Notes under the pieces: model-generated
Told to the model about the DNA's origin: nothing
Databases searched by the model: none
What the model saw: only the letters and a program-made list of their open reading frames with translations
Translations under genes and position numbers: made by a program
Assembly: GCF_003334315.1 (NCBI RefSeq)
Contig: NZ_QOWR01000039.1
Strand: one strand, 5' to 3'
From: Escherichia coli
GTDB taxonomy: Bacteria; Pseudomonadota; Gammaproteobacteria; Enterobacterales; Enterobacteriaceae
Length of the DNA stretch: 44,728 nt
Shown here: piece after piece, positions 41,446-42,357 of the stretch
Layout: each line of letters starts with the position of its first letter
Position numbering within the stretch: position 1 is the stretch's first letter

Positions 41446-42357
41446 TCAGAAGAAAATCCAGTTCCATACCGCGCGGGCAACAGAGACCACCGAGTCACGG
41501 ACGGCGCGCAGAACCGTGCGTGCAACAGAGGCAATGCAGACGCTCTCCGCCGTGTCAAATATCCGGTCCACCGCACCGGTAAACTGTTCACGGGCCTGAG
41601 ACCGGACAGACTCCGTGCGCAGCTCGTCCTGCAGGCGGGTCATCAGGGGACTGGCGGCATGGTCGGGAAGTGCTGTCATGAGCGCACTGACCAGCGTATC
41701 CAGTTCCCAGCCGGTGCGGGCCGATACGGCAACAACCCGATGTACGGGCCGGAACAGACGGAATACCGCCTCCGTTTTTTCGCGAATGTTCTGTGCCTGT
41801 GCGGGAGAAGGCTGAATACCGGCCATATCCCATTCATGGCAGGGCTCCGTTTTATCGGCCTGCATCACCACAAACAGTACCCGCTGATGTCCCCGGTGCA
41901 GGATGTGTCGCCAGAAATACTCATCCACAGACAGGGCACGGTCATCGGCTTTAATCAGCCACAGTACCAGGTCCAGTTCGAGCAGAATGTCACGGTACAG
42001 GGCTTCATACTCTGCATCCCTGTCCCGGCTCTCGCCCACCCCGGGCAGGTCAGTGATAACCATGCTGTGACCATGGCCATTCAGACGGAAGCGCTGCACT
42101 TCCCGGGGGCCGGCGTGAACATCACTGACCGGGGTGACCTCCCCCTGAAACAGCGCATTACAGAGTGAGGATTTACCGGCCCCGCTTTTACCCATAATGC
42201 CAGGCACGGGTTCGTGACTGGTGAGTTTGCGCAGATGTTCCAGGATGTGACGGGAAAGTGAGTAAGGCAGGGAGGAGAGCGGTTTTTCAATTGCCTCAAT
42301 GGCATCAGACGGATTCATACATGTATTCCCGGTGAAAAAAGACAAAACCCCGCGCAC
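41446..42357 (-). CDS. yeeP: YeeP/YkfA/YfjP-family GTPase (island-associated)
   Basis: Walker A GIMGKSGAGKSSLCNALF, DxxG (ITDLPGVG), conserved position in CP4-type islands; start probably internal ATG at 42318. Confidence 0.8.
   Translation of the reverse strand: MRGVLSFFTGNTCMNPSDAIEAIEKPLSSLPYSLSRHILEHLRKLTSHEPVPGIMGKSGAGKSSLCNALFQGEVTPVSDVHAGPREVQRFRLNGHGHSMVITDLPGVGESRDRDAEYEALYRDILLELDLVLWLIKADDRALSVDEYFWRHILHRGHQRVLFVVMQADKTEPCHEWDMAGIQPSPAQAQNIREKTEAVFRLFRPVHRVVAVSARTGWELDTLVSALMTALPDHAASPLMTRLQDELRTESVRSQAREQFTGAVDRIFDTAESVCIASVARTVLRAVRDSVVSVARAVWNWIFF

Follow-up and report, generated by a model that had tools for sequence, protein, structure and literature searches.

The window analyzed here is a 44,728-nucleotide stretch of Escherichia coli DNA (contig NZ_QOWR01000039.1, assembly GCF_003334315.1) that encodes a YeeP-type GTPase of 290 amino acids (aa), annotated in RefSeq as a 'GTPase family protein' (41446..42318; WP_001069811.1). 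This gene and all window features described below lie on the minus strand unless stated otherwise. In minus-strand order, a 387-aa open reading frame (ORF) is followed by the GTPase gene, a 217-bp spacer, genes for a dynamin-family protein, an RdcB-family protein, and a patatin-like protein, two small ORFs, and an island backbone. The backbone after this dynamin-like operon is composed of DUF932, an antirestriction gene, the RadC-like yeeS, yeeT, cbeA/cbtA, and yeeW. Many E. coli chromosomes contain the region at 100% identity. In the O145:H28 strain RM12581, the same stretch is found in the island flanked by cobU and yeeA, at the site that holds CP4-44 in K-12.

The minus-strand ORF at 41446-42357 is uninterrupted, with no internal stop. 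The initial annotation had described it as a 303-aa ORF. The lack of an internal stop is correct, but the GTG start and the length are not, because the RefSeq start codon, and the point at which the alignment begins in all relatives, is the ATG at 42318, which gives 290 aa. The 13-codon GTG extension of the mechanical ORF (42319..42357) is noncoding leader, given that the family alignment starts at the ATG. The GTG at 42357 is located inside the conserved hairpin and T-run of this leader, in the 3' arm of the hairpin (42348-42358).

Assignment of the product to the YeeP family is supported by a Pfam MMR_HSR1 match (E=5.7e-12) and by full-length alignment to YkfA and YfjP. An alignment with YkfA, YfjP, and YeeP had been proposed as a check; with K-12 YkfA and YfjP the protein is colinear and aligns end to end at 49-51% identity and without truncation. 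Identity to other enterobacterial members ranges from 59 to 96%. The GTPase has thousands of homologues (best E=1e-196), and 271 clusters at E<=1e-30 reflect the breadth of the family. The exact window protein is encoded on at least 1000 contigs, a lower bound. The conserved C-terminal helix hairpin ending in VVSVARAVWxWIFF is present. PADLOC, PHROGs, and NCBIfam returned only generic or weak GTPase matches for this protein; there was no significant full-length match to a PADLOC defence model, only a match to LeoBC (E=1e-5) over aa 42-126, the P-loop region. Among the results listed when the literature was searched by the three gene names, there was no biochemical report on any YeeP, YfjP, or YkfA member. 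The window gene is a genuine, full-length gene with an existing annotation, and the island GTPase family to which it belongs is a common one. In a distant relative on a metagenome contig (L017:251-2104), two YeeP-like GTPase genes of 302 and 298 aa are arranged in tandem, 48 bp apart, which hints that some members of the wider family may act as pairs.

In E. coli, Serratia, Yersinia, Klebsiella, and Pectobacterium, the GTPase gene has the same place, at the head of the DUF932, antirestriction, RadC, and DUF987 backbone of an integrative island. This shared position across five enterobacterial genera bears out the view that the gene is part of the island backbone. The window gene would encode the GTPase that belongs to the backbone of a P4-like integrative island of the CP4-44/CP4-57/CP4-6 type. 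In the proposed conserved block, the GTPase is followed by a variable cargo slot and then by DUF932, antirestriction, RadC-like, DUF987, and CbeA/CbtA genes, and the slot in the window appears to be filled by the dynamin-like, RdcB-like, and patatin operon. In the Shigella SRL island, the order is GTPase, Ag43, and a YfjQ-like gene (PMC6980539). Since the neighbours vary, the conserved backbone starts with the GTPase, which is followed by a slot whose cargo differs between loci. No tRNA gene was found in the window by a tRNA scan. Rfam identified a histidine operon leader at 20133-20256 and the sRNA STnc240 at 22995-23069 (plus strand), both of which fit the his-to-yeeA chromosomal context.

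The closest K-12 counterparts with a full-length product are YfjP (b2632, CP4-57) and YkfA (b0253, CP4-6), each 287 aa and colinear with the window copy. They share with it the G1 and G3 motifs, a [N/S/T]QxDK-type motif, and the C-terminal VVSVARAVW motif, as well as the position at the head of the backbone and the architecture of the leader. Unlike YfjP and YkfA, the window copy has Pro71, Leu113, Met152, and Arg194. Moreover, 6 kb of cargo separates the window GTPase from the DUF932 gene, whereas the K-12 pairs yfjP-yfjQ and ykfA-yafZ are adjacent. The third K-12 gene, yeeP (b1999), is at the orthologous CP4-44-type locus between cobU and yeeA and is 96% identical over the shared C-terminal part. 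It retains only ~176 alignable C-terminal codons beside IS2/yoeA debris, whereas the window copy is full length, and K-12 yeeP is followed by isrC-flu rather than by the dynamin-like operon.

Motif alignments comprised 22 relatives (49-96% identity) and then 70 further representatives down to 26% identity. The G1 motif or P-loop, GKSGAGKS (aa 43-50; 42169..42192), and the G3 motif, DLPG (aa 90-93; 42040..42051), are intact, and the columns G48, K49, S50, D90, and G93 are invariant in 70/70 aligned relatives. Exactly four residues are private to the window among the 22 relatives, Pro71, Leu113, Met152, and Arg194, and all sit at positions that are conserved among close relatives. Codon 71 (CCC; 42106..42108) places a proline at the G2 or switch-I position, where the family has threonine (ACC). 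Threonine is found there in 22/22 close relatives and in 69 of the 70 distant ones, the last having serine, and proline occurs at this position in 0/92 relatives examined. Codon 113 (CTC; 41980..41982) encodes leucine in place of a proline present in 22/22 close and 47/70 distant relatives. In the G4-like motif MQADK (aa 152-156; 41851..41865), Met152 replaces the Asn, Ser, or Thr of 69/70 distant relatives, none of which has methionine. Thr71 and Asn/Ser/Thr152 are both retained down to the most distant sequences aligned, at 26% identity. Codon 194 (41737..41739) encodes arginine in place of the proline of close relatives; because this position varies in distant relatives, Arg194 is probably harmless.

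A profile alignment to Era places position 71 on the Thr of the G2 'TTR' and position 152 on the Asn of 'NKxD'. The window protein departs from the family both at the switch-I threonine of the C/G-T-R-D/E motif (Pro71) and at the G4-like [N/S/T]-Q-x-D-K motif (MQADK). The G2 threonine of P-loop GTPases is a ligand of Mg2+ and a sensor of the gamma-phosphate, and the G4 Asn or Thr helps in the recognition of guanine. Given this role of the threonine, its replacement by proline would be expected to disable the switch, and by analogy with other GTPases the window enzyme is probably impaired. The Walker A and DxxG motifs had initially been described as complete; this is true of both (GKSGAGKS and DLPG), but G2 (Pro71) and G4 (Met152) are substituted.

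In the AlphaFold model (pLDDT 75.5, pTM 0.73), the G domain is preceded by two N-terminal helices and followed by a helical hairpin at the C-terminus. In Foldseek searches, the G domain matches Era, EngB, and FeoB, and the best matches to the whole chain are immunity-related GTPases (IIGP1/Irga6) with a TMq of ~0.55. The protein may be described as a G domain of the Era/EngA type with helices on its N- and C-terminal sides; its overall shape is predicted to be nearest to that of the immunity-related GTPases. It shares G-domain sequence and fold with the Era, EngA(Der), and MnmE-type TRAFAC GTPases (MMR_HSR1), and Era is both the top Foldseek hit and a profile match (E=1.8e-14). Unlike these proteins, it has no KH or other RNA-binding domain, its second G4 residue is Gln rather than Lys, and it has helical N- and C-terminal extensions; it also scores far below every NCBIfam equivalog cut-off. 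IIGP1/Irga6, Irgb6, and Irgb10 are the best whole-chain structural matches (TMq 0.50-0.56), with helices on either side of the G domain. Against these stand an identity of 14-19%, a window protein ~100 residues shorter, and a TM-score that is only moderate, and the likeness to the modelled structure is best taken as a resemblance of shape and not as evidence of functional homology. Members of the family may act as nucleotide-dependent switches, in which the helical ends and the aromatic C-terminus (VVSVARAVWNWIFF) would mediate contact with a partner or a membrane on behalf of the island.

The history of the window allele was followed by counting 41-mers centred on each diagnostic base in 5,426 complete E. 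coli genomes, with every seed word including the centre base. The 41-mer with the ancestral Thr71 (ACC) has 7,396 occurrences, spread over 3,966 of the 5,426 genomes, and the gene is annotated there as 'GTPase family protein'. The derived states are nested, with Met152 in 934 genomes, Leu113 in 652, and Pro71 in 243. From these nested counts, missense changes appear to have accumulated stepwise, Met152 then Leu113 then Pro71, with the window copy at the most derived end of the series. It is a full-length but derived minority allele. The allele of O157:H7 strain TR01, which already has Met152 and Arg194, differs from it by two nonsynonymous changes (Thr71, Pro113) and no synonymous ones. Among more divergent alleles, the ratio of nonsynonymous to synonymous polymorphism (pN/pS) is ~0.2. 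The family has therefore been under long-run purifying selection, and the changes in the window copy are recent.

The same gene has been inactivated independently in other E. coli lineages, by a 5' truncation in K-12, a 438-bp in-frame deletion, and a 28-bp deletion that leaves a frameshifted GTPase in O157:H7 FRIK2533. The initial annotation had described K-12 yeeP as a pseudogene, and it is indeed a 5'-truncated, annotated 426-bp pseudogene. In the DNA alignment, its homology to the window starts only at about codon 108, and K-12 yeeP therefore has no G1-G3. The 438-bp deletion, as read in strain THO-003, is flanked by two 8-bp GGTCAGTG repeats and removes aa 63-208 (146 codons); the 41-mer across the deletion junction is present in 922 genomes. 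The deletion allele (L005:5566-6000) keeps the P-loop and the C-terminal helices and is listed in RefSeq as a 144-aa 'hypothetical protein'. A full-length gene is unremarkable, and it is K-12 that is exceptional, not the window.

Upstream of the GTPase gene is a conserved leader (42326..42391), found by folding and by comparison of loci. It begins with a -10-like ATATTAT (42385-42391) and a 5' arm, TTTCCGTGAA (42376-42385), continues with a GC hairpin (42348-42373) and a T-run (42335-42347), and ends with a 3' arm, TTCACCGGGAA, that covers the ribosome-binding region (42326-42336). Besides the window, it was located at L004:12610-12713, L003:10959-11065 (minus strand), L008, L009, L011, L013:3869-4003, and L014-L016:2870-3003. 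The window leader is predicted to fold more stably than shuffled sequence does (z=-3.7), and the yfjP and ykfA leaders have the same architecture with different hairpin sequences (z=-4.4 and -3.8). Since the hairpins differ in sequence and were misaligned by MAFFT in a set of seven leaders, each sequence was folded on its own and cognate arms were compared with non-cognate ones. Cognate arms pair better (-10.4 vs -8.0 kcal/mol, permutation p=0.002). An inner hairpin and T-run are found between two arms in 10/10 loci examined, including those of ~40%-identity relatives. Across YeeP/YfjP/YkfA-family genes, the -10-like box reads ATAT(T/C)AT, and the hairpin sequence is variable. The ykfA and yfjPQ promoters are listed as RpoD promoters with TTGAAA-15-TATCAT (PMC3946193), and the window has TTCCAG-15-TATTAT in the corresponding place. 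If transcription starts just after the -10-like box, part of the 5' arm would be untranscribed, which makes the role of the outer pairing uncertain. The hairpin at 42348-42373 was also considered as merely the terminator of the 387-aa gene; this was rejected as the sole explanation because the hairpin accompanies the GTPase gene despite different upstream genes. AlpA-family genes are found nearby in several loci, and one idea is that the leader could be the target of AlpA-type antitermination. A promoter-proximal hairpin leader of YeeP-family genes appears to be previously undescribed and is outside Rfam.

The 217-bp spacer between the GTPase gene and the dynamin-like operon (41229..41445) is an Ag43-type regulatory region by its homology to flu and cah. 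It contains a -35 TTGCGT (41353-41358), a -10 TAGAAT (41330-41335), three GATC sites (41321-41324, 41303-41306, and 41290-41293), a fusion junction at about 41263-41280, and a Shine-Dalgarno (SD) sequence, AGGAAGG (41236-41242). Both the TTGCGT-17-TAGAAT promoter and the three GATC sites have aligned counterparts in K-12 flu (TTGTCC-17-TAGAAT, three GATC) and in O157 cah. An RpoD promoter between yeeP and isrC/flu is listed as TTGTCC-17-TAGAAT (PMC3946193), and the annotated 5' end of isrC is 6 nt after the flu -10 box. The palindromic GATC pair at 41289-41307 was considered as a terminator and rejected, as it is the OxyR/GATC region.

The evidence on the GTPase gene is best explained by a P4-like island backbone GTPase that is present as a full-length, derived, missense-decayed allele in an expression unit of its own, and this explanation is considered probable. 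The window allele most likely binds or hydrolyses GTP poorly, judged by analogy, and missense decay fits the repeated independent loss of the gene in E. coli. Several points weigh against this. The pN/pS of ~0.2 among older alleles means that the family as a whole is functional, and the Pro71 allele is widespread, in 243 complete genomes and, as the exact protein, on the 1000 or more contigs noted above, with no further lesion; it could be tolerated or used differently. The effect of Thr71Pro and Met152 is itself extrapolated from these positions in other GTPases, and no terminator was found between the GTPase gene and the operon. It is also conceivable, though unlikely, that the Pro71/Met152 allele is not decayed but a selected variant, such as a slow or hydrolysis-dead 'locked' GTPase that serves the island. 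The allele retains an intact ORF, P-loop, G3, and C-terminal motif, it is both common and uniform, and changes that are all nonsynonymous without a synonymous background are also expected under positive selection. However, two substitutions are too few to separate selection from drift, no relative examined has proline at the switch-I threonine, and outright destruction of the gene in sister lineages indicates dispensability rather than refinement.

Two further explanations concern expression, and both are less probable still. One holds that the ORF is silent whatever the state of its sequence, because a terminator-like hairpin and an occluded ribosome-binding site block expression. The conserved hairpin and T-run are 17-30 nt before the start, and the predicted pairing covers the SD region, but the leader is conserved across genera together with an intact gene under purifying selection, which points to regulated rather than absent expression. 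Moreover, RpoD holoenzyme binds the equivalent ykfA and yfjP regions in vitro (PMC3946193), and a silent ORF is improbable. The other, which the initial annotation had raised as a functional link and which is at least as improbable, is that an intact GTPase is co-transcribed or works with the downstream dynamin-like, RdcB-like, and patatin operon. The two share an orientation and are only 217 bp apart, both the GTPase gene and the dynamin-like gene encode GTPases, and the GTPase is weakly matched by Dynamin_N and by the defence protein LeoBC, the latter match being limited to the P-loop region as described above. A simple terminator scan found no strong intrinsic terminator between the gene and the operon, so some read-through is possible; of the terminator and independent promoter that had been named as evidence against a link, only the promoter, homologous to that of flu, is present in the spacer. 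Comparison of genomes argues the other way. The spacer and operon start are found in 1,986 of the 5,426 genomes, of which only 1,085 keep the full GTPase gene (>=80% of 41200-42500). The dynamin, RdcB, and patatin genes are annotated as intact beside the deletion allele in THO-003 (the one genome, L005, of the 922 in which this adjacency was read) and beside the frameshifted GTPase in FRIK2533, and in TR01 the cah autotransporter gene is located between the GTPase and dynamin genes. No dynamin neighbour was found in the Serratia, Yersinia, Klebsiella, or Pectobacterium loci or in the ~40%-identity relatives examined, where the GTPase is followed by WYL, YfjS/YafY, YfjT, IrmA, or DUF932 genes; in K-12, yfjQ follows yfjP and yafZ follows ykfA. 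In addition, the operon genes overlap stop to start, and the GTPase gene does not overlap with them. Joint function appears largely refuted by these comparative data, and a functional tie of the GTPase to the operon is not supported. The preferred reading has the GTPase gene as its own expression unit and the operon behind it under a separate Ag43-type promoter, and we infer two transcription units.

The spacer is of interest in its own right. In comparison with TR01, the first ~165 bp correspond to the GTPase-cah spacer and the final ~55 bp to the end of the cah-dynamin spacer. The window form therefore corresponds to removal of an autotransporter gene; the difference from TR01 would be the absence of that gene, and the event could run in either direction. 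Corresponding Ag43-type promoter regions are at L005:6001-6217, L006:6001-6217, and L007:6001-6371. GATC occurs on average once per 294 bp in the window, and groups of three sites within 45 bp occur at only two places in the 44.7 kb. Predicted OxyR-like half-sites in the spacer match at 8/10 positions. The spacer has the arrangement of an Ag43-type switch, in which a sigma-70 promoter is followed by three GATC sites within OxyR-like half-sites, and the distance from GATC-I to GATC-II is 18 nt, compared to 19 in flu. As in the Dam/OxyR switch of agn43 (flu), a -35/17/-10 TAGAAT promoter is followed by three aligned GATC sites; unlike agn43, the spacer precedes a dynamin-like operon and not an autotransporter gene, and it does not have the long flu/isrC leader. 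At agn43, methylated GATC sites block OxyR, which gives the ON state (PMC4872104, PMC2909390). By homology, the dynamin-like operon is probably phase-variable under Dam/OxyR control. The full proposal, that an Antigen-43 epigenetic switch has been transplanted in front of a dynamin-like, RdcB-like, and patatin operon (with two small genes) in ~37% of complete E. coli and makes the operon phase-variable, is given about an even chance.

Rfam searches of the whole window at the gathering threshold and of 41000-42700 at E<=1 returned nothing at the spacer or the leader. Among the papers searched, none joins dynamin, phase variation, and OxyR, and the methylome papers examined do not mention the locus. 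In E. coli MP1, a five-gene dynamin/RdcB/phospholipase cluster is reported in a 2026 study as the gene set most up-regulated in a lysogen clone relative to a non-lysogen clone by RNA-seq (PMC12922286). This type of operon corresponds to 35618-41228 of the window, and phase variation is not mentioned in that study.

The operon itself begins with the dynamin-family gene (38832..41228), which encodes a 798-aa CrfC/RdcA paralogue that scores 556 bits against an equivalog cut-off of 1146. The start of the RdcB-family gene (37930..38835) overlaps the stop of the dynamin gene, and the start of the gene for the patatin-like phospholipase (36863..37933) overlaps the stop of the RdcB-like gene. PADLOC, PHROGs, and NCBIfam returned nothing for the RdcB-like protein. 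In RM12581 (L001:8322-12029), an IS3 element splits the dynamin-family gene, which is uninterrupted in the window, and the RefSeq label 'dGTPase' on the C-terminal half is an annotation artefact. On the other side of the GTPase, the 387-aa ORF (42402..43565) is variable cargo outside the conserved module. Searches of Pfam, NCBIfam, PADLOC, and PHROGs returned nothing for it, and its N-terminal half is low-complexity and rich in proline and threonine. Homology between the GTPase loci begins ~45 bp before its stop codon.

The window gene by itself matters little, as it is common, annotated, and full length, as is the rule. It does serve as a caution that the absence of a stop codon together with Walker A and DxxG does not equal a working GTPase. 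Loss of the GTPase without loss of the neighbouring operon separates the two functionally, and the conserved leader may control entry into the island backbone genes. If the spacer promoter is an ON/OFF switch, the difference seen in MP1 could be a clonal phase state and not a prophage response (PMC12922286). If the proposal is true, an epigenetic switch would stand before a putative membrane-remodelling or defence operon in more than a third of E. coli.

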